Of a stretch of DNA of 64,000 nt, positions 8,159 through 63,498 are shown piece after piece. Made by a program: the position numbers and the translations under genes. This DNA is from Candidatus Binataceae bacterium (lineage in GTDB: Bacteria; Desulfobacterota; Binatia; Binatales; Binataceae), in NCBI GenBank assembly GCA_035533435.1, contig DATLTX010000058.1, positions 27 through 64,026 on the forward strand. Direction: 5' to 3'. Every line of letters begins with the position of its first letter. The stretch's first letter is position 1. The notes beneath the pieces are model-generated. The model was given only the letters and a program-made list of their open reading frames with translations, made no database searches and was not told the origin of the DNA.

Positions 8159-8244
8159 CGCGCGGCGCTCATCGCGCCGGCGAGGCAGGAAGGCGGGACG
8201 GATTGCCGCGGTGAAAGCATCGCGATACTCACTTCTTCGACTGG

Positions 8245-9339: not shown

Positions 9340-9623
9340 TCTCCCCTACTCCTTGGTCCAGTATTACGCGGCACGCGAATGATTCGCCAGTGCGTCCGTT
9401 GGCTATCGCGGCACCGGCGCTATCGGGAAAATGAAATATACGGACTTGCGAGGGTGGTTGGCTAGCCCCTGTGCGCGGCGCCAACGCCCCACCCGGGTGC
9501 GCGTCGATCATGTCACCGGAGCGGACGCGTCGAGGTGGCCGCCGCTCTTCACACACCAGATGGCGGAGCGATTGCCGTCCATCACCGACGGCGAGCAGGC
9601 ACGCGCGCGTGCAAAGCCTCGGT

Positions 9624-10190: not shown

Positions 10191-10230
10191 AGCGCCTCAC
10201 GCGTCCAGGCAACCGCCGCGGGCGGAATAG

Positions 10231-10614: not shown

Positions 10615-10706
10615 TGTTCCAGGCCTCCTGCGATTGCTTCTACTATCAAGTCAGATGTGAAATAGCATTTCCAGCCACTGGCAGTCTTGCGCTAAAGTGC
10701 CATTAG

Positions 10707-11480
10707 ATGACGAAAAAGCGCCATTGGTTCTTTGATGCAGTCAAGTATCAGGTCCGCGCTGGAACCGTGCCCGAATACGCCAACGGGCGGGTGATCAGGA
10801 CGCATTCGCATCCTTGGCATCAGCTCGTTTACGCGTCGCGGGGCGTGATGACGGTGCGGACCCCGGATGGCGCCTGGGTGGTGCCGCCGCATCGCGGGGT
10901 GTGGGTTCCCGCGCACACGCGCCACTCGATCCAGATGTCGGGCGCGGTGTCGATGCGGACGCTTTATCTGGTGCCGCGCCTGGGTGCTTCGATTCCCAAC
11001 CGATGCCGGGTCGTCGGCATCTCACCGCTGGTTCGGGAGTTGATCCTCCGCATCGTCGAGGTGGACAGCCTGAGCCTTCGCAATCCGGCACACGCGCGGC
11101 TGGTGTCGGTGCTGCTGGATCATTTGCATCCGATGGAGTTGCGGGCATTCCACCTTCCGCTTCCGCGCGACGCGCGCGCGAAACGAATCGCGGCGTTGCT
11201 TCAGGAACTGCCGTGCGACGCGCGATCCCTCGAAGAGCTGTCGAGCGTCGCCGGCGCCAGCAAGCGCACCATCGAACGGCTGTTTTCCCTCGAAACCGGG
11301 CTGGGATTCGGAAAATGGCGGCAGCAGCTCCGGCTGGGACACGCGCTCAGACTGCTGGCGGCGGGCGATGCGGTAACCAACGTTGCGCTCGATGTCGGCT
11401 ACGAGAGCACGAGCGCCTTCATCTCGGCCTTCCGGATGAGCTTCGGACAGACGCCTGGGCAATATTTCCGCGCGCCATGA
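10707..11480 (+). CDS. AraC family transcriptional regulator (cupin sensor + HTH)
   Basis: N-terminal cupin-like region with His-rich motifs. C-terminal dual AraC HTH (SLEELSSVAGASKRTIERLF ... AFISAFRMSFGQTPGQY). Confidence 0.8.
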   Translation: MTKKRHWFFDAVKYQVRAGTVPEYANGRVIRTHSHPWHQLVYASRGVMTVRTPDGAWVVPPHRGVWVPAHTRHSIQMSGAVSMRTLYLVPRLGASIPNRCRVVGISPLVRELILRIVEVDSLSLRNPAHARLVSVLLDHLHPMELRAFHLPLPRDARAKRIAALLQELPCDARSLEELSSVAGASKRTIERLFSLETGLGFGKWRQQLRLGHALRLLAAGDAVTNVALDVGYESTSAFISAFRMSFGQTPGQYFRAP

Positions 11481-11596
11481 ATAATACCGCGAATTTCAAA
11501 CCTGGCTGCTGGATACGCTTGCGCCGAATCGGCATTATGTAGCTTCGGAAGTCACGCTGATCTCGGCAGTCTTGGGCGCGAGGCGCGCCACCGGCC

Positions 11597-14104
11597 TTGC
11601 GGAAGTTCGAGCGCCGAGATGGCTTTTTTCGAGGTTGCGCAAGGATTAACGCAGGCATGGCCGCTCCTTCACTATCCGAAGCCAATAGCAACCTGTTCAA
11701 CGAGCTGATCGAGCATCACATCCGCTTCACCCTGGCGAAGCGGCGCATCGAGCTGACCAAGCACGATTGGTATCGCGCCACGGCGCTGGTGGTGCGCGAC
11801 ATACTGATCGAAAAGATGCTCGCAACCAGCAGGCGCTTCGCGCAGCATCGCTCGAAGAAGCTCTACTACCTTTCGCTCGAGTTTCTGATCGGGCGCTCGC
11901 TCGAGAATAATTTGTTCAATCTCGGCATCATCGATACCTGCCGCGATTTTCTGGCTGAAAACGGACTCGACCTGCAGAACTTGTTTGACGAAGAGCCCGA
12001 CGCGGCGCTCGGCAATGGCGGCCTAGGCCGTCTGGCCGCGTGCTTTCTGGATTCGCTCGCAACCCGCGACCTGCCGGGTTACGCCTACGGAATCAACTAC
12101 GAGTACGGACTGTTCCGGCAGGAGATCCGCGGCGGCTATCAGGTCGAACGGCCCGACGCGTGGCAGCGCGAGACCTCGCCGTGGATGCTGGCGCGGCCGG
12201 AGGAGCATTGCCGGATTCCGGTTTACGGCCGTATCGAGCATCAAATCGACCGCGGCGGCGAGTACGTGCCCGCGTGGGTGGATCAGCGCATCATCGTCGG
12301 CGTGCCGTCGGATTTGCCGATCGCGGGCTTCGGCGGGCGCACGGTCAACTTTGTCCGGCTCTACTCGGCGCACGCCTCGGACGAGTTCGACATGCAGATC
12401 TTCAACGCCGGCGATTATATGAAAGCGGTCGAACAGAAGATGCTCTCCGAGACCATCTCGAAGGTCCTCTACCCATCCGACGCGGTCGCGGCGGGACGCG
12501 AGCTCCGGCTCCTGCAGGAGTACTTCTTCGTGGCCTGCGCGGTGCGCGACATCGTGAGCGCGTTTCTGGGCCGTGGCGAGGACTTGATCGATTTTCCCGC
12601 GCGAGTGGCTATTCAACTCAACGACACGCATCCATCACTGACTATTGCCGAGCTGATGCGCACTTTTATCGATGACTATGATCTCCCGTGGGCCGTCGCC
12701 TGGGATATCACCCGCTCCGCGGTCGCATATACCAATCACACCCTGATGCCGGAGGCGCTCGAGCGATGGCCGGTGGATCTGCTCGGGCGCGTCGTCCCGC
12801 GCCATCTGCAAATCATCTACGAGATCAACCGCCGGTTTCTGGCCGACGCCGAAGCGCGATGGCCCGGCGATGCGGAGAGGTTGAAGCGGGTTTCGATTGT
12901 CGAGGATGGCCGCGAGAATCAGGTCCGGATGGCGCATCTCGCGATCGTCGGCAGCCATTCGGTCAACGGCGTATCGAAACTCCATTCTGAGCTGGTGCGG
13001 ACCCGGCTGGTGCCGGATTTCTACCAGATGTGGCCTGAGCGCTTCAGCAACAAGACCAACGGCGTCACCCAGCGCCGCTGGCTGCTGATGGCGAATCCGG
13101 GGCTCGCGAGCCTGCTCGACGCGTCGATCGGCGCGGGCTGGGTGACCGACCTCGAGCGGCTGCGCGCGGTCGAACGATTTGCCGGCGACAGCGAGTTCCA
13201 GCAAAGCTTCATCGCGATCAAGCGCGCCAACAAGGAGCGGCTCGCCCGGATTGTGAATCGAATCGCCGCCGTGGACTTCGATCCGGCTGCGATTTTCGAT
13301 ATCCAAGCCAAGCGAATTCACGAATACAAGCGGCAATTGCTGATGGCGCTCGGGATCGTGCACGAATATCTGCGCATCGTGGACGACGGCGTGGAAGCGC
13401 CGGCGCCGCGCGCCTATATTCTAGCGGGGAAAGCGGCGCCCGGTTATTGGGCCGCCAAGATGATTATCAAGTTGATCACCAGCCTCGGCGACACAATCAA
13501 TAGCGATCCTAAAGCCCGCGAACTGATCAAGGTGGCCTTTCTGCCGGACTATCGCGTCTCCCTGGCGGAGAAAATCATCCCGGCCGCCGACGTCTCGGAA
13601 CAGATTTCGACCGCCGGCCGCGAAGCCTCGGGCACCGGCAACATGAAATTCGCGCTCAACGGCGCGCTCACGATCGGAACCCTCGACGGCGCAAATATCG
13701 AAATTCGCGAAGCGGTAGGCGCCGAAAATATATTCATTTTCGGGCTGACCGCCGAACAGATAGAATCGGCGACCCTGAGAAATGAGTATCGGCCGCGTGA
13801 TTACTACGAATCCGATCCGCGGCTCAAACGGGTATTGGATGAACTCGCTTCCGATCGCTTCTGTCCGGGCGAGCCGGGGCTGTTCCGATGGGTTCGCGAT
13901 GCGCTGCTGAGCCGCGACGAATATTTTCTGATGGCCGATTTCGCTTCCTATATTGATACTCAGTCGGCAATATCGGAGCAGTATCAGGACCGCGAGCTAT
14001 GGAACCGCAAGGCTATTCTGAACCTCGCGCGAATCGGGCGATTTTCCAGCGACCGGGCGGTGGCGGAGTACGCGCGGGATATCTGGCGGATCACTCCAGC
14101 GTAA
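11597..14104 (+). CDS. glgP: glycogen/alpha-glucan phosphorylase (GT35)
   Basis: Pyridoxal-phosphate Lys motif EASGTGNMKFALNGALTIGTLDGANIEI and a conserved GT35 core. The start may instead be Met at 11657 (MAAPSLSE). Confidence 0.9.
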   Translation: MRKFERRDGFFRGCARINAGMAAPSLSEANSNLFNELIEHHIRFTLAKRRIELTKHDWYRATALVVRDILIEKMLATSRRFAQHRSKKLYYLSLEFLIGRSLENNLFNLGIIDTCRDFLAENGLDLQNLFDEEPDAALGNGGLGRLAACFLDSLATRDLPGYAYGINYEYGLFRQEIRGGYQVERPDAWQRETSPWMLARPEEHCRIPVYGRIEHQIDRGGEYVPAWVDQRIIVGVPSDLPIAGFGGRTVNFVRLYSAHASDEFDMQIFNAGDYMKAVEQKMLSETISKVLYPSDAVAAGRELRLLQEYFFVACAVRDIVSAFLGRGEDLIDFPARVAIQLNDTHPSLTIAELMRTFIDDYDLPWAVAWDITRSAVAYTNHTLMPEALERWPVDLLGRVVPRHLQIIYEINRRFLADAEARWPGDAERLKRVSIVEDGRENQVRMAHLAIVGSHSVNGVSKLHSELVRTRLVPDFYQMWPERFSNKTNGVTQRRWLLMANPGLASLLDASIGAGWVTDLERLRAVERFAGDSEFQQSFIAIKRANKERLARIVNRIAAVDFDPAAIFDIQAKRIHEYKRQLLMALGIVHEYLRIVDDGVEAPAPRAYILAGKAAPGYWAAKMIIKLITSLGDTINSDPKARELIKVAFLPDYRVSLAEKIIPAADVSEQISTAGREASGTGNMKFALNGALTIGTLDGANIEIREAVGAENIFIFGLTAEQIESATLRNEYRPRDYYESDPRLKRVLDELASDRFCPGEPGLFRWVRDALLSRDEYFLMADFASYIDTQSAISEQYQDRELWNRKAILNLARIGRFSSDRAVAEYARDIWRITPA

Positions 14105-14943: not shown

Positions 14944-16125
14944 CTAAAGGTTCCGGGCCTCGGGAAATATCCGCAGGAAATTCTCGGAATAGAATCCACT
15001 GCGTATCTGTTCGGAACGATTTCCGAGCGCGGTCTCGAAACGCGCAATCGGATTTCGCCCGCCTTCCGTATGAGGATAGTCACTCGAAAATAGATACAAC
15101 TCCGGATTTGACTGGTCGATCAGGCTGCCCACGTCCTCAAAGACAAAAGGAGTAAACGCCATCTGCCGCGTGAGCTGTTCGGACGGACTGCGCGTGAACC
15201 GCGCCAGGTTGGCGTCGGTTTTGCGCCAGTGCCGCACTACCCAGTCCAGGCGTACCAGCAGCGACGGCACCCATCCGGCGCCCAGTTCGACGCCGGCGCC
15301 GCGCAGATTCGGAAAGCGCTCGAAGACGCCGTCGATTAGCATCATCGACAGGAACGTCTCCGGCCCCTGATGCAGCACGGCGACATCCTTGGTGCGCAGA
15401 TTCTCGCCGCCGCCCATCCAGTCCCTGGTCGGCGCCCTGCCATTGTTCATCCACGCCTTGGCGAGCTGGAGCGGCGACCCGCCAACGTGCAGAACGAACG
15501 GCGTGCCCGACTCGGCAAGCGTTGCCCAGAAGCGATCGAAGGCGACATGGCCGGGCGACTTGTCGGCGCAGGGGCGATGCGGAATCCAAACGGCTTTCAA
15601 TCCGCACTTGAGCGCAAAGTTGAGTTCCTCGAGCGCTAGGTCCGGCTCGTCCAGCGGCACGATCGCGACGCCCAGCAGGCGACTGTCGCGCGAGCAGAAG
15701 TCGGCCATGTGCCGGTTGTGGGCGCGGGTTGCGCCGTAACGAAGCCGCGGCAATAGCTTCGAACTGGGCGAAAACGGCATCGCGACGCTGTGCGTGGCGA
15801 ACACGAGCTGGCTGCGGAAGCCCAGCATGTCGAGCGCGATCGAACGTTCGGGGCTGTCGAAGGCGCCCAATGCCTGAATCTCCTTGGCACGCTCGATCAA
15901 GCGATCGCCCAGACCCAGCAGCTCGGCGACATGCGCCTGGCTGTGGCGGCCGCCGCGGGCCATGATCTCGGCGACTTCCTCATCGGTGACAATCGAAGCG
16001 CTGTAGCTCACCGCCGGAAGCTCCTCGCGCAGTTCCGGATCGGCGTAGCGCTTGAGAAAATCCGGCAGCTCCATGATATGGCTATCGGCGTCGTAATAAG
16101 GCCGGTTGTCGGGTGCGTAGGCCAT
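14944..16125 (-). CDS. amidohydrolase-2 family metal-dependent hydrolase
   Basis: TIM-barrel amidohydrolase pattern (DADSH...H...D). Start corrected to the internal ATG at 16125, which is preceded by GGAGG-N8. The ORF-track start at 16176 lacks an RBS. Confidence 0.7.
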   Translation of the reverse strand: MAYAPDNRPYYDADSHIMELPDFLKRYADPELREELPAVSYSASIVTDEEVAEIMARGGRHSQAHVAELLGLGDRLIERAKEIQALGAFDSPERSIALDMLGFRSQLVFATHSVAMPFSPSSKLLPRLRYGATRAHNRHMADFCSRDSRLLGVAIVPLDEPDLALEELNFALKCGLKAVWIPHRPCADKSPGHVAFDRFWATLAESGTPFVLHVGGSPLQLAKAWMNNGRAPTRDWMGGGENLRTKDVAVLHQGPETFLSMMLIDGVFERFPNLRGAGVELGAGWVPSLLVRLDWVVRHWRKTDANLARFTRSPSEQLTRQMAFTPFVFEDVGSLIDQSNPELYLFSSDYPHTEGGRNPIARFETALGNRSEQIRSGFYSENFLRIFPEARNL

Positions 16126-16234
16126 CGCGCTACCTCCGGGCCCAAATCGCGGTGGGCGTCTCGGCGCCCGATTCAATCACTATCGCTCCGATCCGTCCAC
16201 TTGGCCGGCCGCCGGCGGCGCGCGGCGCGAGCCT

Positions 16235-17092
16235 TTAGCGGCGCTTCATCGCCTCGAATCCGCCGATCAGCTCCAGCACCTCAGTGGTGACCGCCTCCTG
16301 ACGCATCCGGCGCATGGTCCGATTGAGCTCCTTGGCTTTGTTGTCGATATTTTCGTGCGCCGCGTCCATCGTGCGAAACCGCGCCGCGTTCTCGCTTGCA
16401 AACGAATCCATGGCTCCCGCCTCGAGCATCGCGAACATATATTCCGCGGCGAGTTCGTCGAACAGGCGACGCGGGCTCAAGTTCACAATTGGCGGTAATC
16501 CGGGATGATTCGCTTCGACGGCCGGCGCTTCCAGGGGAAGTAGTTTCAGGCGATTGAGACTGGCGCGCTGCCCAGTTGCTTCGCGGGTGAAGATCATCTC
16601 GACGCTGGTCAACGCCTGCGCCATAAACCTGCGATACAACTCGGCGGCGACCTTGCGCGCAACCGCGGTGACCCCGCCGCTATGCGTCGCCATCGAAAGA
16701 GTGAGAGCCGGGCGCAGCCCGCGCTCAGAGGCTCGCTGGGCGCCGCGTGTGCCGACGAAGATGAGTTGAAGGTTCCGCTGGCTCTTTGCGGCGTCGGCGG
16801 CGGCGCGGATCAGCGGATCATTGAAGGACCCGCAAAATCCGTGTTCGGAGCAGAAAACCACAAGCCCGGGCCGGCGCGGATTGCCGACGGCCGAGCCGTC
16901 ACCGTCTTCGGGAAGCAGCGTGGCAGCTTCGGCCAGCGCGCGGCGAATTATTTCGGCGTAGTCGCGAATCGCATCTAGCGAGCGCTGGCTTTGCTGCATT
17001 TGCACCGCGGCGATAGCGCGCAGCGCCGCAACAATCTCCAGCAGCTCATTGAGCGAACCTATTTGCTCGGTGATTTCCTGTGCTCGCGCCAT
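16235..17092 (-). CDS. atpG: ATP synthase gamma subunit (N-ATPase operon)
   Basis: Gamma-subunit N- and C-terminal coiled-coil helices. Last gene of the atpDCQRBEFAG cluster. Confidence 0.9.
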   Translation of the reverse strand: MARAQEITEQIGSLNELLEIVAALRAIAAVQMQQSQRSLDAIRDYAEIIRRALAEAATLLPEDGDGSAVGNPRRPGLVVFCSEHGFCGSFNDPLIRAAADAAKSQRNLQLIFVGTRGAQRASERGLRPALTLSMATHSGGVTAVARKVAAELYRRFMAQALTSVEMIFTREATGQRASLNRLKLLPLEAPAVEANHPGLPPIVNLSPRRLFDELAAEYMFAMLEAGAMDSFASENAARFRTMDAAHENIDNKAKELNRTMRRMRQEAVTTEVLELIGGFEAMKRR

Positions 17093-17101
17093 CGAGGTCA
17101 G

Positions 17102-18655
17102 CTACCCCGCCGCAGCGCCGGCGGCGCCGCTGACCTGCGCGACCAATGCCGCCATCGAACGTTTCAACGCCGCCCGCGTCGCCCCGTCGAGTTCACCGGT
17201 CGATCTGATTCGTTCGATCGCCGCGGCGGCGTTTTCGCCGAGCCACTGGGCAAGCGAGTTGCGCAGCCCCGCCACCTTCTCCAGGGGCAACGAATCGAGC
17301 ATTCCCTCGCCGAGCGCGAGCAGCAGCGCCACCTGATGCGGCATCGCAAGCCCGGAACACTGCGGTTGGGTGAGCACGGCCCGGATCCGGCGGCCATGTT
17401 CGATTATGCGGTGCGTGCGGTCGTCCACCATCCCGCCGAAGCGGGTAAAGATTTCCAGTTCGAGGAACTGGGTGTATTCGAGGCGCAAATTTTCCGCCAG
17501 CTCACGCATCGCGGGCGCCTGGGTTTTGCCGCCAACGCGAGAGACGCTCTTGCCAACATTGATGGCGGGTTTTTGGCCCTCCTGGAACAGGCGCGGCTCC
17601 AGGACAATCTGGCCGTCGGTAATCGAAATGAGGTTGGTCGGAATGTAAGCCGAGATATTGCCCTCCTCGGTCGCGGCAATCGGCAGCGCCGTCAGCGAGC
17701 CGCCGCCGCGCTCATGGCTCAACCTGGCCGCGCGTTCGAGCAGGCGGGAATGAATGTAGAAGATATCGCCCGGATAGGCTTCACGCCCCGGCGGATTCCT
17801 CAGCAGCAATGAAAGCTGGCGGTAGATGACCGCATGGCTGGTCAGGTCGTCGATGACCAGGAGCGCGTCGCCGCCGCGTTCGCTGAAATACTCCGCCATC
17901 GTGCAGGCCGCGTACGGCGCGAGCCATTGCAGTCCGGGAGGATCATCCGAAGCGGCGACGACAAAGATGCATCGCTCGGGCGCGCCGAAACGGCGCACGG
18001 TTTCAATCACCTGGGTGACGGAAGAGGTCTTCTGCCCGACTGCGCAGTACACGCAGATCACGCCGGAATCGCGCTGGTTGACGATTGTATCGACGGCGAT
18101 CGCGGTCTTGCCGGTTTCGCGGTCGCCGATTATCAACTCGCGCTGACCCCGCCCCAACGCCAGCATCGAATCGATCGCGACCAGGCCGGTCTGGAGCGCC
18201 TGGCTGACGAGATCGCGCTCGATGATGCCAGGGGCGGGCCGTTCGACGGGTTCGAAACCTTTTTGGGCTAGTTCCGCGCCGCCATCGAGCGGTATTCCAA
18301 GTGGGTTGACCACGCGCCCGAGGAGCATCTCGCCAACTGGCACGCTGGCCACCAAACCCGTTCCATGCACGCGATTGCCGGCGGCAATTTCTTCCGCCGG
18401 ACCCAGCATCGCACAACCGATCAGTCCCGGATCGAGCGCGAGCACCATCGCGGTCACGGGTTCGCCACCGCCTTTGCGCTCGAATAGCAGCAGTTCATTG
18501 AGCCGCGCTCGTGGCAGGCCGGAGACGGTCGCGACGTCGTCGCCGATACTCTCGACGCGGCCGAGCATATCGAGCGCGGGTCCTGGCTTAAGCCGCTCGA
18601 CGCGCCGCACGGCTTCATCGAGCTTTAGCGCCAGGTTCTCAGCCAGGGTGCTCAT
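17102..18655 (-). CDS. atpA: ATP synthase alpha subunit
   Basis: Walker A GDRETGKTAIAV and an alpha-type catalytic core. 517 aa. Confidence 0.95.
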   Translation of the reverse strand: MSTLAENLALKLDEAVRRVERLKPGPALDMLGRVESIGDDVATVSGLPRARLNELLLFERKGGGEPVTAMVLALDPGLIGCAMLGPAEEIAAGNRVHGTGLVASVPVGEMLLGRVVNPLGIPLDGGAELAQKGFEPVERPAPGIIERDLVSQALQTGLVAIDSMLALGRGQRELIIGDRETGKTAIAVDTIVNQRDSGVICVYCAVGQKTSSVTQVIETVRRFGAPERCIFVVAASDDPPGLQWLAPYAACTMAEYFSERGGDALLVIDDLTSHAVIYRQLSLLLRNPPGREAYPGDIFYIHSRLLERAARLSHERGGGSLTALPIAATEEGNISAYIPTNLISITDGQIVLEPRLFQEGQKPAINVGKSVSRVGGKTQAPAMRELAENLRLEYTQFLELEIFTRFGGMVDDRTHRIIEHGRRIRAVLTQPQCSGLAMPHQVALLLALGEGMLDSLPLEKVAGLRNSLAQWLGENAAAAIERIRSTGELDGATRAALKRSMAALVAQVSGAAGAAAG

Positions 18656-19397
18656 TGTGATTCAAATCCCGTTGCGCATCGGCCAGAGTGTCGCGCCAAC
18701 TGAAGCGAAGGATCGCGTGAGGGAAGCCGAGTTCCGCGCCGGCAATAAGCTCCTTGTCGGTGGCAAAAGCAATTTGCGCGCGGGCGCCGAGTCGTTCGCC
18801 AAGCGTTGCGCGCCATTTGGATTCGGCGTCGGAGCTGAGCGGATGCGCGGTTGTGACGAGCAAACGCGCGCCGTCGCGTCCGAACTCGCCGAGCAATGCT
18901 GTACGCTCGGCCGCGGATAGATGATCCAGATGGTCGAGCACGCGGTCGAGGAATAGTTCTTCGAGGCGCGGCGCCGAAAATTGCTCGAGCAGGCGCTGCG
19001 CGAGCCGGACCGCAATTTGTATCGATCGCGCGAACACCTCGCGAGCGGCGGTTTCCCGCTCTTCGTCCACACGGGTCCGGGCGGCGGCTTTGAGTTTTTC
19101 GATATCGGCGCGCGCGTCTTCGATCATCCTGGCCCGTTCATCGCCAATCTGTGCGCGCGCCCGATCGATAATCTCCTGGCGCCCGGCTTCGATTTCGGCT
19201 TGGCGCGACTCGAAATCCTTGCGCGCCTGTTCGGCGCGCTGGCGCAGGCTCTCGGCGTCGGCCAGCGCGCGCGAAATCTCATCCTTGCGCTGAGCGATAA
19301 TCGCGGCGACCGGCTTGAACAGAAAGCGCTTGAGCAGCCACACCAGAACCAGAAAATTGACCGCCTGGAGCGCGAATGTGGTCCAGCTAAACGACAT
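18639..19397 (-). CDS. atpF: ATP synthase subunit b, long form with delta-like C-terminal region
   Basis: Single N-terminal TM followed by a long charged coiled coil. At 252 aa it is about 90 aa longer than canonical b. No separate atpH gene is present. Confidence 0.8.
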   Translation of the reverse strand: MSFSWTTFALQAVNFLVLVWLLKRFLFKPVAAIIAQRKDEISRALADAESLRQRAEQARKDFESRQAEIEAGRQEIIDRARAQIGDERARMIEDARADIEKLKAAARTRVDEERETAAREVFARSIQIAVRLAQRLLEQFSAPRLEELFLDRVLDHLDHLSAAERTALLGEFGRDGARLLVTTAHPLSSDAESKWRATLGERLGARAQIAFATDKELIAGAELGFPHAILRFSWRDTLADAQRDLNHNEHPG

Positions 19398-19642
19398 CAG
19401 CGTGTTGCGTATGGATTGGCGAACAGCAGCAGCAGAGCCACCACGAGGCAGTAAATCGCCATCGTTTCGATCATCGCAAGTCCGACAAACAGCGTGCGCG
19501 ACAGCGCGCCGGCCGATTCCGGCTGCCTTGCGATACCGTCCATCGCGGCGGCAATCGCGCGCCCTTCCGCCAGCGCCGGGCTGATCGACCCGACCACCAC
19601 GGCCAGCACGGCGCCAATTATGCTTATCATCTGCACGGTCAT
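19397..19642 (-). CDS. atpE: ATP synthase subunit c (two membrane carboxylates)
   Basis: 81-aa helical hairpin with the ARQPE loop. Glu is present in helix 2 (MIETMAIY) and also at the helix-1 position equivalent to Gln32 of Na+-binding c subunits. The start is an ATG preceded by GGAGG; the ORF-track start is too far upstream. Confidence 0.8.
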   Translation of the reverse strand: MTVQMISIIGAVLAVVVGSISPALAEGRAIAAAMDGIARQPESAGALSRTLFVGLAMIETMAIYCLVVALLLLFANPYATR

Positions 19643-19658
19643 ACCTGATCCTCCCTGA

Positions 19659-20327
19659 CTACTTCTCGATCGAACCGACGGCGCCGCCGATATAGACCGC
19701 GGCCAGCACCGTGAATATGTAGGCCTGCACCAGCCCGACCAGTATTTCGAACGCCATGAATGGAATCGGCACCAGCAGCCCGGCCAGCGCCACAACTATC
19801 GCGATTACCAGTTCGTCGCTCATGATGTTGCCGAACAGCCGCATCATCAAGGAGAACGAGCGGGTGAATTCAGAAAGTATGTTTAGCGGCAGGAGCATCG
19901 GGTTGGGTCTCAGATAGCCCTTGAGATAGCCACCGAGTCCGTGAAGCTTCACGCCGAAAACGTGCACCGAAAAAAAGACAATCGTAGTCAGCGCCGCCGG
20001 AGTTTCGAGCGAAGCGGTGGGCGCGCGGACCCCGGGCAGAATTCCCGAGAGATTGGCAACCACAAGGAAAATGAACAACGTTCCCAGCATCGGCAGAAAT
20101 TCCGACGGATCGTGATTGACTATTCCCCGAACCTGTTCCTCGATCTCCGTCACCAGCGTTTCAAGCATCGCCTGGAGACTATTTGGAACCACGCGCAAAT
20201 GACGTGTCGCGAGACGGCAGGCGATCGCGAGCGCCGCTATCAGCACCCAAGTCGTTACCACGGGACCGGTAATGATAACCGGACCGATATGAAACACGAC
20301 GGCTACTTCGAGCGGAGAACGACTCAT
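19659..20327 (-). CDS. atpB: ATP synthase subunit a
   Basis: Five-TM a-subunit with the conserved Arg in the penultimate helix (LSEFTRSFSLMMRLFGNI). Start corrected to the internal Met (MSRSPLEV), which overlaps the atpR stop as ATGA. Confidence 0.8.
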   Translation of the reverse strand: MSRSPLEVAVVFHIGPVIITGPVVTTWVLIAALAIACRLATRHLRVVPNSLQAMLETLVTEIEEQVRGIVNHDPSEFLPMLGTLFIFLVVANLSGILPGVRAPTASLETPAALTTIVFFSVHVFGVKLHGLGGYLKGYLRPNPMLLPLNILSEFTRSFSLMMRLFGNIMSDELVIAIVVALAGLLVPIPFMAFEILVGLVQAYIFTVLAAVYIGGAVGSIEK

Positions 20328-20608
20328 CGCACCGCCTCTGTCGCCGAAGCTTTTGCGCGAACGGCGAAGACCCTCGCCAACTGGAGCCCGGCCGCAACGC
20401 AAAGCAGAGGAGCCGCGCCGAATCTGGCGACCCCGGCCAATCCGGCGGCGACGCCGAATAGGCGCAGCGCGTGAATTGGCGCCGCAAGGCGAGATTGGGC
20501 GCTCCCGCAGTAGAGCCGAACGTTCCATTCGAGCGCGCCGAAGAATGCCGCACCGAGCGCCGTTCCCAGGACGAGAAAAAACCCCAGTTTGAGCCCCGCG
20601 ATATTCAT
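20324..20608 (-). CDS. atpR: N-ATPase-specific small membrane protein AtpR
   Basis: 94-aa protein with 3 predicted TMs and membrane-embedded Arg residues. Its position between atpQ and atpB is diagnostic of N-type ATPase operons. Confidence 0.55.
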   Translation of the reverse strand: MNIAGLKLGFFLVLGTALGAAFFGALEWNVRLYCGSAQSRLAAPIHALRLFGVAAGLAGVARFGAAPLLCVAAGLQLARVFAVRAKASATEAVR

Positions 20609-20913
20609 GCCTGCGTGTGCATCCTTTGCCAGACCAGGTAAAAGCCCGCCGCCACGCCAAGGAAAACCAGCGTCGCGCTCCAGAAAACCCCGGAGTCAAA
20701 AACCCCGTCCAGCCAGCGGCCGACGAACGCGCCCAACAGCGGCGGCCCGACGATGGTCCATCCGAACCTGCCCATCATCGCGAGTGCGCGTCCGAGCGGC
20801 CATTCTCCGGTTCGGTCCCAGTATTCGCTTCTGGCTCGCACTTTATCGACAGCCTTGGCGAGCTTGCGCTCCTCCTCGTCGGAAGGTCCGCCGTTCTTGG
20901 AGTCGCCGGTCAT
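20605..20913 (-). CDS. atpQ: N-ATPase AtpQ (AtpI/AtpZ-like) membrane protein
   Basis: About 100-aa protein with two predicted TM helices. It sits immediately after atpC and is translationally coupled (ATGA) on both sides. Confidence 0.5.
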   Translation of the reverse strand: MTGDSKNGGPSDEEERKLAKAVDKVRARSEYWDRTGEWPLGRALAMMGRFGWTIVGPPLLGAFVGRWLDGVFDSGVFWSATLVFLGVAAGFYLVWQRMHTQA

Positions 20914-21338
20914 GGTTTGCGCACCAGCGGATCCCACGGTTGTTCACCTGGACGCAGGTAGCGGTAGAGCTGCTGAATTACGGCTTGCTGAAGACCCAAC
21001 GCTCCGAGCCGCGCGGCCTGTTCCGTCTCTGCGTTTTTCGTCATCTGCGCAAGAACGACCTCGCGCAAAATTTTGAGGCCTTCGCCCAGAACCGCTTCCC
21101 GCGTAGCGACCTCGACCGATTTGCCCTCGCGCACGCGAAGAACGCCGCCACGAACCGCCGCATAGTGTTCCAGGCCGGAGCGGTCGCGCCAGACGAGCAC
21201 ACTGATCGCCAGCGCCGTCAGAAAATCCGCATGTCCCGGCTGTATTCCGAAAGCTCCAGTCGAATCTTCGGCGCGGACGTGGCGCACGTTGTCCGCGCTG
21301 ACGACGATCGCGGTGGGAGTGGTGATGACCAGTTTCAT
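20910..21338 (-). CDS. atpC: ATP synthase epsilon subunit
   Basis: N-terminal beta-sandwich (GAFGIQPGHADFLTAL) and a C-terminal helical hairpin. Confidence 0.8.
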   Translation of the reverse strand: MKLVITTPTAIVVSADNVRHVRAEDSTGAFGIQPGHADFLTALAISVLVWRDRSGLEHYAAVRGGVLRVREGKSVEVATREAVLGEGLKILREVVLAQMTKNAETEQAARLGALGLQQAVIQQLYRYLRPGEQPWDPLVRKP

Positions 21339-21347
21339 CGGCGCGCG

Positions 21348-25368
<4,021 letters not shown>

Positions 25369-25372
<4 letters not shown>

Positions 25373-26541
25373 CCAGACGAGAAAAGCACCCGGTAGGTAT
25401 GCCGGGCGATCATCAGGTCTTCGTTGGTCGGGATGACGCGAACCCGGCAGCGGCTGGCGATCGAGCTGACCGTGTCGGCGTTGGCTTCATTACGCTCGCG
25501 ATCGAGGCTGATACCCAAATGCTCCAGCCCGGCGCAAATCTCCCAGCGTACCGGGGCGGCGCGCTCGCCGATTCCACCGGTGAAAACCAGCAGATCGAGT
25601 CCCTCCAGTGCGGCGGTTAGCGCGCCGATTTGTTTGCGCACCTGGTAGCAGAACATCGCCACGGCCTGGGCGGCGTCGGGTTCCCTGTCTCTGCGTTCCA
25701 GCAGCGTCTTCATGTCCGAGCTGATGCCCGAGACGCCCAGCAGGCCGGACTGATCGTTGACGAGCAGTTCGAGTTGCCGGGAATCGAGATGTTTCGCACC
25801 CTGCAGATAGACCATGATTCCCGGATCAAGATCGCCGCTGCGGGTTCCCATCATGAAACCGCCGCTCGGTGAAAATCCCATCGTGGTATCCAGCGGCCGT
25901 CCGCCGCGCACGGCCGCCATGCTCGCGCCGTTTCCGAGATGAGCTATTATCACCCGCGGAGGAGGACTAATGCCCAGGGTCCGCATGATGTACTCATAGG
26001 AGATACCATGAAATCCGTAGCGGCGGATGCCGTCGTTCCAGAACGCGCGCGGCAGCGCGAAGCGCTCGGCCACTTCAGGCATCGCGCGATGAAAAGCCGT
26101 GTCGAAGCAAGCAACCTGCGGGAGATCGGGAAAGCGCGAAGCGACCGCTTCGATACCGGCAATCTCGTCAGGCAGGTGCAGGGGAGCAAACGGCACCAGA
26201 CTTCGCAGCTCGCCGATAAGAGCGTCGGTGATCCGTTCCGGCGCCGCATGAGCGGGGCCGCCATGTACTATTCGGTGGCCGACCGCGTCAGGAGGCCGAA
26301 TACTCAGTCGCTCGAGTCCGGCAAAGGCAGCCCGCACGCCCGCTTGTGGCTCGAAGAAATCCTCGCCGGTGCTCTCGCTTTTCCCGCTGCCGGAGCTAAT
26401 CCACAGACGGGCGCCGCGCGCGCCGGTGCGCTCGATTGCGCCTTGCGCGAGCAACTCTTCGCCTCCACCGTCAAGCCGATAGAGCGCGAATTTCCGCGAC
26501 GAAGAGCCGCTGTTCAGGCAGAATATATTTTTTGGCGCCAT
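25369..26541 (-). CDS. ackA: acetate kinase
   Basis: ASKHA fold with N-terminal LNSGSSSRKFAL and an acetokinase signature. Overlaps the downstream gene by 4 nt. Confidence 0.9.
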
Positions 26542-26569
26542 CGCACGCCCGCCAGCTCGCAGGTTGTCT

Positions 26570-28978
26570 TTAGTATGGCCATTTCCAGTGCTCGATTTCC
26601 GGCTTGTCGATTCCGTGCTCGAATGCGTATTTCAGGTTCTCGTATATCTGGTCGGTTAGCCATTTCTTGACATGCGCGCCGCTTCCCTGCAGACGCGGCA
26701 CGCGATTGATTACGTCGATCGCAAGATTGAAGCGGTCCACCTGATTACTGATAGCCAGTTGCAGGGGAGTATTGATGCTTCCGAATTCCTTGTAGCCGCG
26801 CACATGCAGGTTGGCGTGATTGGCGCGCCGGTATGCGAGCTTGTGAATCAGCCACGGATAGCCGTGAAAGTTGAATATGACCGGCTTGTCGATCGTGAAC
26901 AAGCTGTCGAAATCGCGATCGCTGAGGCCGTGCGGATGCTCGGTTGACGGTTCGAGCTTGAACAGATCGACGACGTTGACGAAACGAATCTTCAAATCGG
27001 GAAACCGTTCGCGCAGAATCGCGGTCGCCGCCAGCGCCTCAGTCGTCACCACGTCGCCCGCGCTGGCTATTACCACATCAGGCTCGGCGCCCTGATCGGT
27101 GGAAGCCCATTCCCACAGGCCCAGGCCCTGTGCGCAATGGCGCTCGGCCGACTGCATATCAAGAAATTGGATATGCGGCATCTTGTCGGCGACGATCACA
27201 TTTATGTAGTTGGTGCTGCGCAGGCAGTGATCGCCAACGGAGAGCAGGCAATTCGCGTCAGGCGGCAGATAGATTCGCGTCACCAATGCGCTCTTGTTGG
27301 TAACCACGTCGATAAAACCCGGGTCCTGATGGGTAAAGCCGTTGTGATCCTGACGCCAGACCGTCGAGCTGATCAGGATGTTGAGCGACGACACCGCCGC
27401 CCGCCACGCGACTTCGCTGCGGCATTTCTCGAGCCACTTGGCGTGCTGATTGACCATCGAGTCGATCACGTGCGCAAACGCCTCGTAGGTCGAGAACAGC
27501 GCGTGTCTGCCGGTCAGGACGTAGCCCTCCATCCAGCCCTCGAGGTTATGCTCGCTCAGCATTTCCATCACCCTGCCGTCGGGCGACAGGTCGCCGCCGT
27601 CGTCGTCTTCGGGCTTGCGCTCGGCGAGCCAGGTTTTTTTGCTCACTTCGTAGATTGCCTGAAGCCGGTTCGACGCGGTTTCATCGGGACCAAAGACGCG
27701 AAAGCTGTGCATGTTCTCGCGCATCACGTCGCGCAGAAAGGTTCCCAGCACATACGTATTCTCGGCTTCGACGCGGCCCGGATGCTCGACTTTGACGGCG
27801 TAGTCGCGAAATTCCGGCATCCGCAGCGGCTTTCGCAACAGCCCGCCGTTGGCGTGAGGGTTGGCGCTGATCCGGCGGGCGCCGCGTGGCGCAAGCTCGG
27901 CAAGTTCGGCGACGAGTTTTCCCGCGCGATCGAACAACTCCTCGGGACGATAACTGCGCATCCAGCTTTCCAGAATTTTCAGATGCGCGGGATTGGCGGC
28001 AACGTCCAGGATCGGAATCTGATGCGCGCGCCACGAACCCTCGATCCGATGCCCATCGAGCTCTTTTGGCGCCGTCCATCCTTTCGGCGACCGCAGAATT
28101 ATCATCGGCCAACGCGGTCGCCCCGCCACGCCGCTTTGTCGAGCCTGCTCCTGGATCGATCGGATATCGCCGATGCATCGTTCCAGCGTGGCCGCCATCT
28201 TCTGATGCATCGCAAGCGGATCGTCGCCCTCGACGACATGGGGCGCGTACCCATAGCCATTGAATAGCGCCTCGAGTTCCTCGTGCGGAATGCGCGCCAG
28301 CACGGTGGGGTTCGCGATTTTGTATCCGTTCAGATGCAGGATCGGCAAAACCGCGCCGTCGCGGATGGGGTCCAGAAATTTGTTCGAATGCCACGAGGTC
28401 GCGAGCGGGCCGGTCTCCGACTCGCCGTCGCCAACCATCGCAACCACGAGCAGGTCGGGATTGTCGAAGGCCGCGCCGAACCCATGCGAGAGGCTGTAGC
28501 CGAGTTCGCCACCCTCATGAATCGAGCCCGGGGTTTCAGGCGTGCAATGGCTGCCGATACCGCCGGGAAAGGAAAACAATTTGAAAAATTGACGCAGCCC
28601 CTCTTCGTCCTGGCTCCGATCGGGATAGATCTCGGAGTAGGTTCCTTCGAGGTAGCTGTTCGACAGCACCGCGGGCGCTCCGTGGCCCGGGCCGGAGATA
28701 TAGAGCACATTCAGATCGCGCGCTTTGATCAGGCGGTTCAGATGGACCAGGACCAGCGACTGGCCCGGATCGGATCCCCAATGTCCGAGCAGGCGGCGCT
28801 TGATATGTTCGGCGCGAAGCGGCTCCCGCAGAAGAGGATTGTCGCGCAGATACAGCATCCCGACGCACAGGTAATTGCAGGCGCGCCAGTAAGCGTCGAT
28901 CTTGCGCAATTCGTCGGCGCTCAGCGGCGATGCGCCCGCTTTCGGATCGATCTTCTCTCCGTCAGCCATCTGATTCAC
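26570..28978 (-). CDS. xfp: phosphoketolase (xylulose-5-P/fructose-6-P phosphoketolase)
   Basis: 802 aa with the XFP N-terminal signature ([27 protein letters not shown]), TPP-binding motifs, and a C-terminal XFP domain. Confidence 0.9.
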
Positions 28979-29099
28979 CTTTCCGCTCGCGATTCGCCAG
29001 AGATCGTCGATACTATCATTAACGATAGTCCCCGGAGCTGATGTCCAAAACCATTAATCGGTGTGACGCGCCGGAGATTGAGAGCGACGATGTATCGAG

Positions 29100-29115
29100 A
29101 GCAATCGGCGTGCCG
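29100..29115 (-). promoter_or_regulatory. candidate sigma54 -24/-12 promoter for xfp-ackA-phosphorylase-atp unit
   Basis: Minus-strand cGGCACGccgaTTGCt with exact GG-N10-GC spacing, ~120 nt upstream of the xfp ATG. Confidence 0.55.
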
Positions 29116-29268
29116 CTGGTTCGCGCGCGAATTGCGATGTCTCGCAAAGCCGACGGCGCCGCCGCGAACCGACCAAACGGCACAACCGCCAGTCAAGCGA
29201 TGCACCCAAAAGACGCATCGCGCCGCTTGCGCAAGCTCATCGGCACGTGAAACCGCCTTCGTTCGAGT

Positions 29269-29334: not shown

Positions 29335-29817
29335 ATGAAAGTCGAAAACATGATGAATCGCGAGGTCAAAACCTGTCATCCGCAGGACCGCCTCAACCAG
29401 GGCGCCCAAGTCATGTGGGAAAATACCTGTGGCGCCGTTCCGGTCGTTGACCAGCAATCCCGCCCGGTCGGATTCCTCACCGACCGCGACATCTGCATGG
29501 CCGCCTACACGCAGGGCAAGCGCCTTCAGGAGATGACCGTCGAGGGCGCGATGTCGCATAAGATTGTCACCTGCCACGCCGATGACGACCTGTCGGCCGC
29601 GATGAGAACGATGGCCGAGACGGGACTTCGCAGGCTGCCGGTGACCGGCCAGGACGGCTCACTGGTCGGGATCCTGTCGCTCGATGATATTGCTTGCGAA
29701 GCGGGAAGAACGATGCGGGGCGGCGTGAATTTGGAGTTGCGCTCGCAGGTCGCCGACATCACAATCGCGGTCTGTCGAGGCCGGGTTAAGGCCCGTGCTC
29801 CAATCAAATCTGACTGA
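29335..29817 (+). CDS. CBS domain pair protein
   Basis: Two CBS motifs (VKTCHPQDRLNQGAQVMWENTCGAVPVVD... and IVTCHADDDLSAAMRTMAETGLRRLPVTG...). Confidence 0.8.
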   Translation: MKVENMMNREVKTCHPQDRLNQGAQVMWENTCGAVPVVDQQSRPVGFLTDRDICMAAYTQGKRLQEMTVEGAMSHKIVTCHADDDLSAAMRTMAETGLRRLPVTGQDGSLVGILSLDDIACEAGRTMRGGVNLELRSQVADITIAVCRGRVKARAPIKSD

Positions 29818-29825: not shown

Positions 29826-29966
29826 ATGCCGACGCTTGGAAAACGGTATCTATGCGAGAAGTGCGGAACCGAAGTTCTGTGCAACAAGGCCGGCGCCGGC
29901 ACCCTCGAATGCTGCGACGCGCCGATGAAGATCAAAGAAGCAAAGCCACTGCCCTCGTCCGACTAG
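29826..29966 (+). CDS. desulforedoxin-like small metal-binding protein (not in ORF track, 46 aa)
   Basis: The ORF is MPTLGKRYLCEKCGTEVLCNKAGAGTLECCDAPMKIKEAKPLPSSD. The motif C-x2-C ... GTLxCC matches the Cys4 pattern of desulforedoxin. A GAGGG RBS lies 7 nt upstream. Confidence 0.55.
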   Translation: MPTLGKRYLCEKCGTEVLCNKAGAGTLECCDAPMKIKEAKPLPSSD

Positions 29967-31592: not shown

Positions 31593-31608
31593 TGGCATCG
31601 CCGTTGCT
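31593..31608 (+). promoter_or_regulatory. candidate sigma54 promoter for HlyD/ABC-2 efflux operon
   Basis: TGGCATcgccgTTGCT, ~15-25 nt upstream of the HlyD start codons. Confidence 0.4.
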
Positions 31609-40013: not shown

Positions 40014-40041
40014 CACTTCGAGATTGAAGGAGTTCGTCAGG

Positions 40042-41052: not shown

Positions 41053-41098
41053 CCCCCCGGCAGTGAGCCAAATCCATGATCGCCACGGGGGAGTCAGT

Positions 41099-61992: not shown

Positions 61993-63498
61993 CTATTCGA
62001 GACCGTACTTAGCGATCTTCGCATAGAGCTTCTTGCGCGAGATCTTGAGCAGCTTGGCCGCGGCGACTTTGTTGCCGCCGGTGCTCTCGATCGCGCGGCC
62101 AATCAGATCGCGCTCGGCGTCGGCGAAGCTACCCACGCTTTCACCGCCGAACCCGGCGGGAGCCGCCGCGCGCACCCCGGAGATCGCTTCGGGCAAATCA
62201 ACCAGGCGCAGCTCGGATGCGCGGCCAAAGGTAAAGGCGCTCTCGATCGCGTTGGCCAGTTCGCGCACGTTTCCCGGCCACTGATATGCGCTCATCGCCT
62301 CGAGCGCCGCTCGCTCGATTCCCACCACCGGCGCCAGGCGCATCCCGCGTTCGTTCATCACCTCGACAAAGTGATCGACGAGCAGCCCTATGTCCTCGAG
62401 CCGGTCGCGCAGCGGAGGCACCGCAAGCACGCTGGCCTGAAGCCGGTAGTACAGATCTTGCCGCAAGAGACCCACGCGGAGGGCTTCTTCAGGATCGCGA
62501 TTGGTCGAGGCGATCAGCCGCGCGTTGACTGCAATCTCGCGGGTTGCGCCGACAGGACGCACAGTCCGTTCCTGCAGGACGCGCAAGAGCTTGCTCTGGG
62601 TCTCGGCGCTCATCTCGGTAACTTCATCGAGCAGCAGCGTCCCACCCTCAGCGGCGCGAAACAGGCCCTCGTACTCGTTGTTCGCGCCGCTGAACGCGCC
62701 GCGTTTGTAGCCGAACAATTCGCTTTCGATCAGATCGCGCGGAATCGCGGCGCAATTCAGCGCGACGAACGGCGCGTTCGGCTTGGCGCCGCATTCGTGA
62801 ATTGCGCGCGCCACCAATTCTTTCCCCGTCCCGCTCTCCCCCACGATCAGCACGGTCCCGCGCGTCGCGCCCACCGCCTCGATCCGCTCGTACAGCTTGC
62901 GCATCGCAGGGCTCGCGCCGACCAGGCCGTGAAAGCGCGTGCGCTCGCCGGCGGGCAGCGCTGTCGCCTCGCGCTCGAGCGCCTGGATTCGCGCACCCGA
63001 GACCGCGGTGGTCGAGCGAAAGTAGGTGTCCGCCAGGATGATCATCCGGCAATGACTCAGCTTGTCGAAGGAAAGGTAGGTCTTGGGCAGCGACGGTGGA
63101 AAGACCGGAAACACCGCGGTCGCGCTTTCCTCGAACAGATGCATCGAAATGATCAGCTCGGAAAACGGAACTCCCCGGTCGGCCAGCGTGCGCCCAACCC
63201 GGCGGATATCCGCGGCGAAGCCCTCCATGTCGCGGGCCAGCAGATCGCGCAAAGTAGTGTCCAGCTCGGAGCCGAAGATCTCGAGGAACTCGGTCCTGGT
63301 CAGGGCGCGTGAATCACCGAAGTGCAGTACATAGAGGTTGTACCAGTTGGCCATCACTTCGTCGCGGTGGCGGCGAATCGACTCGAAGACTGGCGTCAGA
63401 GCCTCCAGCTCCTCGTCCCATAGAAGGTGGAAATATCGGGGCGCGGTGGACTGCGTTTTTGCGGGGTTTGAAGATTCAGACGGTGGCTTCATGCGCAA
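61993..63498 (-). CDS. sigma54-dependent transcriptional activator (bEBP) with non-receiver N-terminal sensory domain
   Basis: AAA+ Walker A GESGTGKE, GAFSGA (GAFTGA variant) sigma54-contact loop, and a C-terminal Fis-type HTH. The N-terminal ~190 aa lack the receiver Asp signature. Confidence 0.85.
   Translation of the reverse strand: MRMKPPSESSNPAKTQSTAPRYFHLLWDEELEALTPVFESIRRHRDEVMANWYNLYVLHFGDSRALTRTEFLEIFGSELDTTLRDLLARDMEGFAADIRRVGRTLADRGVPFSELIISMHLFEESATAVFPVFPPSLPKTYLSFDKLSHCRMIILADTYFRSTTAVSGARIQALEREATALPAGERTRFHGLVGASPAMRKLYERIEAVGATRGTVLIVGESGTGKELVARAIHECGAKPNAPFVALNCAAIPRDLIESELFGYKRGAFSGANNEYEGLFRAAEGGTLLLDEVTEMSAETQSKLLRVLQERTVRPVGATREIAVNARLIASTNRDPEEALRVGLLRQDLYYRLQASVLAVPPLRDRLEDIGLLVDHFVEVMNERGMRLAPVVGIERAALEAMSAYQWPGNVRELANAIESAFTFGRASELRLVDLPEAISGVRAAAPAGFGGESVGSFADAERDLIGRAIESTGGNKVAAAKLLKISRKKLYAKIAKYGLE

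Follow-up and report, generated by a model that had tools for sequence, protein, structure and literature searches.

Why should the genes for a glucan phosphorylase, a phosphoketolase and an acetate kinase lie directly in front of those for a putative ATP-driven ion pump? The question is raised by a 64,000-nucleotide stretch of a contig from an uncultured soil bacterium, Candidatus Binataceae (DATLTX010000058.1, positions 27 to 64,026; hereafter the window, in whose own coordinates positions are given); it takes in nearly all of this 64.4-kb contig of a metagenome-assembled genome (MAG). Its minus strand carries, from 28969 down to 16235, twelve genes in the order xfp-ackA-glgP-atpDCQRBEFAG (Table 1). 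Our leading interpretation, which we hold with about equal belief and doubt, is that these genes form a sigma-54-dependent operon that would couple a redox-neutral, respiration-independent branch of ATP formation to an N-type ATP-driven H+ (or Na+) pump, the N-ATPase.

Gene content and promoter of the xfp-atpG string

Gene identities were assigned with Pfam and NCBIfam profiles at their curated cut-offs, and they bear out the gene content and same-strand order (xfp, ackA, glgP, N-ATPase) put forward in an initial annotation of this DNA. Xfp has the complete three-domain XFP architecture and scores 1520 bits against NF003617 (cut-off 1143), AckA gives a full-length match to TIGR00016 (358 bits; cut-off 293), and the GlgP of this unit joins an N-terminal DUF3417 domain to a phosphorylase catalytic domain, with 777 bits against TIGR02094 (cut-off 192). 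The first is a predicted phosphoketolase with fructose-6-phosphate or xylulose-5-phosphate as its possible substrates; the second is a predicted acetate/propionate kinase, assigned at the level of the family; and the third is predicted by its family to act on an alpha-glucan (glycogen or maltodextrin).

Start codons were corrected from orthologue alignments and gene calls, and from a deposited protein of 100% identity. The xfp gene, previously drawn up to 28978, starts at the ATG at 28969, and its orthologues are also called at 799 aa; the glgP ATG at 25345 is conserved in the orthologue alignment and yields a product 100% identical to a deposited 837-aa Candidatus Binataceae protein; and the GTG of atpD at 22799 aligns with the ATG of its counterparts in two related loci (L081 and L082). 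With these starts the 28-nt spacer between xfp and ackA stands as first described, while the supposed 4-nt overlap of ackA and glgP becomes a 23-nt spacer and the distance from glgP to atpD falls from about 50 to 32 nt. Most junctions inside the atp cluster are overlaps of 1-4 nt, and spacing along the whole strand ranges from -4 to +32 nt.

N-ATPases are recognised by the gene order atpDCQRBEFAG, by AtpR (urf2) and AtpQ and by the lack of a delta gene, and a genome that encodes one always has a canonical F- or A-type ATP synthase as well (Dibrova et al. 2010, PMC2881411). The order atpD-atpC-atpQ-atpR-atpB-atpE-atpF-atpA-atpG runs here from 22799 to 16235, with identical gene calls in L081 and L082. 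AtpR is detected by PF12966 (41.6 bits; cut-off 26), whereas with TIGR03165 it reaches 37.9 bits where 55.5 would be needed. No gene of the operon encodes a separate delta (OSCP) subunit, and the OSCP-like tail of AtpF (E = 3e-4) falls below the Pfam cut-off. In pairwise comparison the beta subunit is 63-72% identical to those of atpDCQR-type operons, against 54-58% for ordinary F-type enzymes. By these signatures the Binataceae enzyme is a predicted, divergent member of the N-ATPases. Each helix of its c subunit carries a Glu (ALAEGR, IETMAIY). The enzyme shares with described N-ATPases (PMC2881411, PMC5376962) the gene order, AtpR with AtpQ, the missing delta gene and the paired Glu residues of the c subunit, but differs from them in its c-subunit motif ETMAIY, in subunits that score below the NCBIfam 'alternate F1F0' cut-offs, and in having no recognised promoter region of its own, being joined behind glgP (with xfp and ackA) under a putative sigma-54 promoter.

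This predicted promoter is a -24/-12 element (CGGCACGCCGATTGCT) 131 nt upstream of the xfp ATG, with one mismatch to TGGCAC-N5-TTGCW. It is the sole site with at most one mismatch on the minus strand between 16000 and 29400, and it is kept as CGGCATGACGATTGCT in L081 and as CGGCATAGCGATTGCT in the related loci L082 and L083, so the sigma-54 site proposed in the initial annotation is conserved among relatives. About 95 nt upstream of the -24 element we read an inverted repeat from the sequence (GCGATGC-N11-GCATCGC); the block GCGATG[CT]GTCTTTTGGG..CA is kept in L081 and in L082/L083, the rest of the intergenic region having diverged, and the repeat is a candidate activator-binding site (upstream activating sequence, UAS). 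The window as a whole contains nine sigma-54 sites with at most one mismatch where 1.7 were expected, a number reached in 0 of 100 shuffles, and the xfp promoter appears by sequence to belong to a wider sigma-54 regulon that takes in universal stress protein (USP), CBS and transporter genes. A sigma-54 enhancer-binding protein (EBP) encoded near the end of the window is a candidate activator of this regulon and may act at the xfp promoter; in L180, a further Binataceae locus, an EBP gene also lies close to a glgP-N-ATPase unit. No rpoN gene was found within the 64-kb window.

Sigma-70-like and terminator-like sites across the unit do not exceed the counts in shuffled controls. The absence of an obvious terminator before atpD, as first reported, holds in that none is conserved, and folding of the glgP-atpD spacer gave generic GC-rich structure with no T-run. 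A hairpin with a T-run at the 3' end of ackA (25387-25408) was rejected as a terminator, being not conserved in the L082 orthologue. Rfam gave no match in the xfp leader at E values up to 1 and none in the window at gathering thresholds. Because the gaps do not exceed 32 nt, no terminator is conserved, no sigma-54 site lies inside the string and its order is conserved, xfp through atpG would probably be transcribed as one 12.9-kb message.

Table 1. Features of the 64-kb window, followed by loci of more distant phosphorylase homologues
Feature	Position	Strand	Evidence and remarks
xfp, predicted phosphoketolase	26570..28969	-	799 aa from ATG 28969; XFP_N, XFP, XFP_C (PF09364, PF03894, PF09363)
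ackA, predicted acetate/propionate kinase	25369..26541	-	390 aa; PF00871
glgP, predicted alpha-glucan phosphorylase, DUF3417/TIGR02094 type	22832..25345	-	837 aa; PF11897 and PF00343
atpD, N-ATPase beta	21348..22799	-	483 aa from GTG 22799; Pfam domains
atpC, N-ATPase epsilon	20910..21338	-	PF02823; aligned with 25 N-type epsilon subunits
atpQ (ATPase_gene1)	20605..20913	-	PF09527, 56 bits; about 102 aa, length per orthologues
atpR, N-ATPase-specific subunit	20324..20608	-	94 aa; PF12966
atpB, a subunit	19659..20327	-	222 aa; PF00119, length per orthologues
atpE, c subunit	19397..19642	-	81 aa; PF00137; NF009998 130 bits (cut-off 116)
atpF, b subunit	18639..19397	-	252 aa; PF00430; weak OSCP-like C-terminus
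atpA, alpha subunit	17102..18655	-	
atpG, gamma subunit	16235..17092	-	last gene of the N-ATPase operon
sigma-54 -24/-12 element	29100..29115	-	upstream of xfp
inverted repeat, candidate UAS	29197..29221	-	upstream of the -24 element
CBS-pair protein, divergent	29335..29817	+	PF00571; same position in L081, L082 and L083, 84-90% identity
Amidohydro_2 gene	14944-16176	-	58 nt downstream of atpG, same strand
second glgP	11597-14104		polyglucan gene
GT4 gene	8245-9339		polyglucan gene
GDE-type enzyme	5879-8158		polyglucan gene
EBP, candidate activator	61993..63498	-	501 aa; Sigma54_activat and HTH_8
further sigma-54 site	625-640	-	
further sigma-54 site	31593-31608	+	
further sigma-54 site	39998-40013	+	
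further sigma-54 site	41037-41052	+	
further sigma-54 site	49725-49740	-	
further sigma-54 site	50788-50803	-	
further sigma-54 site	53685-53700	-	
further sigma-54 site	54031-54046	+	
L084, L087			PGM-glgP
L085 (Binataceae)	3493-12517 (of L085)		USP, P2-type cation ATPase, xfp, His_Phos_1, glgP in one direction; no ackA
L086 (NC10 MAG)			sigma-54 site, rhodanese, ackA, xfp, glgP
L088			phosphorylase in unrelated context

Conservation of the linkage and N-ATPase neighbourhoods elsewhere

The linkage is present in related genomes, as the initial annotation required of a genuine unit: L081 (glgP 87% identical) and L082 and L083 (74%) all have the divergent CBS gene followed by xfp-ackA-glgP-atpDCQRBEFAG in the same order behind the conserved sigma-54 promoter. 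In three further Binataceae loci, L180 (glgP 80% identical) and L181 and L182 (73%), glgP is joined to atpD without xfp and ackA. The two genes overlap by 13 nt in L180, where a sigma-54 site (CGGCATAGGGATTGCT) lies 62 nt upstream of glgP and the surroundings include EBP, USP, CBS and hemerythrin genes, and they are 4 nt apart in L181 and L182. The conserved core is the DUF3417 phosphorylase with the N-ATPase, rather than xfp or ackA. Immediately upstream of glgP-atpD in the last two loci (L181 4529-6673, L182 860-3004) is a gene for a 714-aa multi-pass membrane protein without a Pfam family, and at the other end of the unit the Amidohydro_2 gene behind atpG recurs at the same position in L082 and L083 (84% identity), whereas L081 lacks it there; the unit may vary in whether its 3' end extends to this gene.

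Phosphorylase homologues at or below 70% identity stand in other contexts (L084-L088; Table 1). In L085 an ATP-making xfp/glgP branch is paired with a different ion pump, which suggests a second instance of such pairing; an isoamylase gene downstream of its glgP is interrupted by an insertion sequence (IS) element. A further assembly occurs in L047, a MAG labelled as a delta proteobacterium, in which YflT, 6PGD-like, glgP, HAD, ackA, xfp, PMM-type HAD and atpDC... genes follow one another on one strand. Its N-type atpD is only 56% identical to that of the window, and the locus, which adds two candidate sugar-phosphate mutases, is probably a differently ordered and independent assembly of the same parts.

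Neighbourhoods were surveyed in three collections. A scan of GTDB species genomes with atpD gave, among the matches listed, 80 loci (65 ordinary F-type and 15 N-type); a tblastn search of plasmids gave 41 matches, from which 11 loci were examined; and a metagenome scan with the alignment of N-type epsilon subunits gave at least 80 loci, 24 of them with at least 3 kb upstream of atpD. The combination of xfp, ackA and glgP beside an N-ATPase was found in one of the 15 N-type genome loci listed (L047), in none of the 11 plasmid loci and in none of the 24 listed metagenome loci, which also lacked ackA, pta and arc genes. Over about 48 N-ATPase loci outside the close relatives, L047 alone among those listed showed a link to xfp. 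Recurrent linkage of xfp and ackA to N-ATPases, for which the initial annotation looked to such surveys, is thus not borne out, and a general association was rejected on the strength of the metagenome loci and of a census of upstream open reading frames (ORFs). In that census 142 ORFs from 39 N-type loci fell into 199 Pfam families, the commonest of which, USP, had four members. The phosphorylase behaves differently: L111 carries glgP divergent from atpD and L109 has it just downstream of atpG, and across all loci the association of glgP with the N-ATPase recurs in four different arrangements. The full fusion is lineage-restricted, and the recurrent specific partner is the DUF3417 phosphorylase.

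Other ATP-yielding fermentative pathways lie close by in a minority of N-ATPase loci. Among the GTDB genome matches listed, ackA is near three sphingomonad N-ATPase loci, and sphingomonad plasmids carry pta-ackA-fabI upstream of the N-ATPase, while the far side of the operon is followed by PRPP-synthetase-like, thymidine-phosphorylase-like and MBL-fold genes (L091/L097, 21917-24336). Plasmids with pta-ackA and N-ATPase genes occur in Novosphingobium capsulatum and Rhizorhabdus. On plasmid pOLGA1 of Paraburkholderia phytofirmans OLGA172 (L098, 1241-11774) the N-ATPase is adjoined by a divergent arcDABC cluster, four USP genes, an MBL-fold gene and a flavodoxin gene. A divergent hyf-type hydrogenase accompanies the N-ATPase of a Methylovirgula plasmid and a divergent CBS gene that of a B. 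pyrrocinia plasmid; the Azospirillum, Methylocystis, Methylosinus and S. panacis plasmid loci have nothing comparable nearby.

Proposed role and rival explanations

It is plausible that the unit lets glycogen-derived ATP drive an ion pump under energy stress. The DUF3417 phosphorylase would use inorganic phosphate (Pi) to release glucose-1-phosphate from stored alpha-glucan, a housekeeping mutase and isomerase encoded outside the operon would carry this on to fructose-6-phosphate, and Xfp, again with Pi, would split fructose-6-phosphate or xylulose-5-phosphate to yield acetyl-phosphate, from which AckA would form acetate and ATP at the expense of ADP. The N-ATPase would hydrolyse that ATP and hand ADP and Pi back to the first three enzymes, with the result that the membrane would stay energised, or ion and pH homeostasis be kept, when respiration cannot provide for them. 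Further polyglucan genes reported earlier at 5.9-14 kb (a second glgP, a debranching-type gene and a GT4 gene) are indeed present. We infer from sequence the hydrolytic direction of the N-ATPase, the ion that it pumps and the signal that induces it.

Through phosphoketolase cycling with carbon-rearranging enzymes, all of a sugar phosphate can end up as acetyl-phosphate (Bogorad et al. 2013, cited in PMC4609045). ATP formed in this way without net redox change would suit cells that lack an electron acceptor. Since no pta is present, acetyl-phosphate would seem to go to ATP formation and not to acetyl-CoA; neither pta nor acs was found within the unit to connect the two. The trigger suggested by analogy is energy or oxygen limitation, because the surrounding USP, CBS and other genes resemble hypoxia or dormancy islands such as lxa. 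Neighbours and sigma-54 targets in the window include USP-CBS genes, a CBS pair, a P2-type cation ATPase, FtsH and several exporters, to which the related loci add nitroreductase, DUF2267, APH/AAA_33 and hemerythrin genes.

Parts of this arrangement are familiar. Pairs of xfp and ackA occur in many bacteria, and the distant homologues examined here include xfp-ackA-glgP alone behind a sigma-54 site (L086) and xfp-glgP without ackA (L085). The phosphoketolase-acetate kinase pathway, or non-oxidative glycolysis (Bogorad et al. 2013, cited in PMC4609045), likewise uses Xfp and AckA to obtain ATP from sugar phosphate without net redox change; in Binataceae, unlike in that pathway, the genes stand in one string with an ATP-consuming rotary pump and there is no pta. 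The lxa locus of Burkholderia cenocepacia is rich in USP genes and includes acetate kinase and phosphate acetyltransferase genes, and the only ATP synthase that its description mentions is the canonical one (BCAL0029-0037), which is down-regulated; no second ATPase is named as part of the locus (Sass et al. 2013, PMC3721108). The present locus resembles it as a USP-rich island with an acetate kinase, and the sphingomonad and Paraburkholderia N-ATPase plasmid islands look lxa-type. The mycobacterial DosR dormancy regulon has CBS-pair proteins, a P-type ATPase for cations and genes of the phosphoribosyltransferase type among its features. The Binataceae locus is under putative sigma-54 control, in contrast to the regulators described for lxa and DosR, and phosphoketolase and glycogen phosphorylase are not part of lxa or DosR as described.

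The physiological logic also has a precedent. In non-respiring cells, such as Pseudomonas aeruginosa during anaerobic survival or fermentative streptococci, the housekeeping F1Fo enzyme hydrolyses ATP to hold the proton-motive force, fuelled by AckA or arginine deiminase. There too a rotary ATPase consumes ATP from substrate-level phosphorylation and thereby energises the membrane, but the enzyme is the housekeeping one and its genes are unlinked, whereas in Binataceae a dedicated ATPase lies beside ATP-producing genes in a predicted operon. Literature searches for N-ATPase with phosphoketolase, and for Binatota with phosphoketolase, found no report; publications naming both N-ATPase and acetate kinase draw no link between them; a joint search on phosphoketolase, acetate kinase, ATP synthase, universal stress protein and hypoxia found nothing, and one on the locus tags of the B. 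pseudomallei N-ATPase found nothing relevant. Neither PMC2881411 nor PMC5376962 describes linkage of an N-ATPase to substrate-level phosphorylation genes. All components are known, and it is the combination in one predicted operon that, in agreement with the initial annotation, has no prior description in the literature searched.

Several observations weigh against a coupled operon of this kind. The link to xfp and ackA is confined to a narrow clade and one MAG, the closest N-ATPase relatives among the metagenome matches listed (atpD 77-87% identical) lack both genes, and the 39-locus census found no common partner upstream of N-ATPases. PGM, PGI, transketolase and transaldolase, which the full pathway needs, were not found within the 64-kb window. 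A sigma-70-type promoter of an uncultured phylum, placed within the 3' end of glgP, would not be recognisable with the tools used. As to the pump, the N-ATPase subunits fall short of the NCBIfam profiles for the alternate enzyme (627 bits against a cut-off of 752 for beta, TIGR03305), and helix 2 of the c subunit reads ETMAIY instead of ESTxxY, with Thr for Ser and Met for Thr, one Na+ ligand short. As to the inducing signal, residues 1-190 of the EBP have no Pfam or NCBIfam match and no recognised sensor domain.

A first alternative is that the genes share a stress island or regulon with no metabolic coupling between them, the N-ATPase having an unrecognised promoter of its own and drawing ATP from the general pool. 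We consider this unlikely. In its favour, stress genes behind sigma-54 sites make up a patchwork across the window, the neighbours of N-ATPases elsewhere are mixed, USP being the commonest, and xfp and ackA are missing upstream of glgP-atp in L180, L181 and L182. However, gaps of at most 32 nt, a 13-nt overlap in L180 and 4 nt in L181 leave no space for a sigma-54 promoter with its UAS, the strand has no second sigma-54 site between 16000 and 29400, and the repeated association of glgP with the N-ATPase in four arrangements, together with the independent L047, would not be expected by chance for a single-copy gene. Given the overlaps of glgP with atpD and the varied, repeated associations, a shared island without coupling is less likely than metabolic coupling.

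A second alternative accepts a co-expressed, glycogen-fuelled unit and differs from the coupled operon described above in the purpose of the pump, which would serve Na+ extrusion or pH homeostasis under salt, acid or desiccation rather than anoxic energisation. N-ATPases, which are argued not to make ATP, were first proposed as Na+ extruders (PMC2881411); the B. pseudomallei enzyme, with its c17 ring, has been proposed as a proton pump for acid survival, Burkholderia N-ATPases being H+-coupled (PMC5376962). Other products of the window include a P2-type cation ATPase, FtsH and several exporters, and no oxygen sensor was identified, the N-terminus of the EBP being without a Pfam match. On the other side stand the c subunit, short of the full ESTxxY set of Na+ ligands, and the USP-CBS, CBS-pair, nitroreductase, DUF2267, APH/AAA_33 and (in relatives) hemerythrin genes, which resemble hypoxia or dormancy regulons. 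By the rule that a c subunit short of a Na+ ligand suggests H+ coupling (PMC2881411), the departure of ETMAIY from ESTxxY suggests that the Binataceae pump would be coupled to H+ rather than Na+; this loss does not exclude N-ATPase membership, because Burkholderia N-ATPases are likewise H+-coupled. Most of the data would also fit a salt or acid pump, and one enzyme could fill both roles, but as a replacement for anoxic energisation we rate it as distinctly improbable. That the ATPase instead acts as an ATP synthase, with Xfp-AckA serving acetate assimilation or acetyl-phosphate signalling and adjacency reflecting general energy metabolism, is very improbable: F-type enzymes are reversible in principle, AckA is reversible and acetyl-phosphate is a known phosphodonor, but the unit has no pta or acs, N-ATPases are argued in the literature not to make ATP, and the presence of a glycogen-degrading partner suggests that flux runs in the catabolic direction.

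If the coupled operon is accepted, it would extend the roles proposed so far for N-ATPases, namely Na+ extrusion and acid survival, which rest on sequence and one c-ring structure. The conserved fusion to glgP, joined in some lineages by xfp and ackA, ties the N-ATPase to stored-carbon catabolism and a respiration-independent ATP supply, and gives a testable hypothesis of how aerobic soil bacteria keep their membranes energised during anoxia or dormancy; the redox-neutral phosphoketolase route would, if this is true, join the known anaerobic-survival strategies. The full fusion is phylogenetically narrow and its host uncultured, which limits the reach of the finding, but the sphingomonad and Paraburkholderia plasmids with pta-ackA or arcDABC beside the N-ATPase offer culturable test beds. 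More speculatively, and with doubt outweighing confidence, we suggest that N-ATPases may be pumps dedicated to maintenance in cells that are starved of energy and do not grow, that the Binataceae operon may be a self-contained unit converting storage glucan to ion-motive force under one sigma-54 activator, and that the plasmid pta-ackA and arginine-deiminase clusters may be variants of the same logic.

Other sigma-54 promoters and neighbouring genes

Most of the window's other sigma-54 sites are followed, after 40-130 nt, by a ribosome-binding site with its start codon. Encoded behind them are two USP-CBS proteins, a CBS protein, a DUF1329 protein, an HlyD/ABC exporter and two proteins without a recognised family, and their range suggests that the contig resembles a single sigma-54 stress regulon. 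The motif GC[GA]TTCGGATACAT occurs upstream of two of the window's sigma-54 promoters, at 50893-50906(-) and 53918-53931(-), and in L180 about 90 nt upstream of the sigma-54 site at 7924-7939, the promoter of glgP-N-ATPase; it may be an activator or IHF site. A common UAS (GCGTTCGGATACAT) was considered and rejected, exact or one-mismatch matches being limited to two window promoters and the glgP promoter of L180 and three-mismatch matches being at chance level. No single UAS motif is established, because the xfp promoter carries a different conserved inverted repeat.

Among the sigma-54-associated genes, the ORF calls at 39430-40845, 41024-42661 and 52289-53701 probably begin later than the longest ORF implies. 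Four ORFs that are preceded by or adjacent to sigma-54 sites have no Pfam family (41024-42661(+), 48597-49676(-), 48100-48585(-) and 63489-63908(-)); several sigma-54-driven ORFs are without an NCBIfam family too, and a 359-aa product among these family-less ORFs has a faint likeness to the ferritin-like R2-like ligand-binding oxidases. A small ORF at about 29826-29966(+) (MPTLGKRYLCEKCGTEVLCNKAGAGTLECCDAPMKIKEAKPL...) separates the CBS gene from ABC-3 transporter genes, and its orthologues in L081 and L083 are called as 46-aa Desulfoferrodoxin_N-like proteins. The genes at 43107-48032(+) encode a Fer4/pyridine-nucleotide-disulphide oxidoreductase, a Rieske protein, a cytochrome b and a multihaem c7-like protein, possibly an alternative electron-transfer module in the same island. 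Finally, the window carries at 58062-59054(+) and 60235-61974(+) the same pair of PRPP-synthetase-like and thymidine-phosphorylase-family genes as the sphingomonad plasmids.

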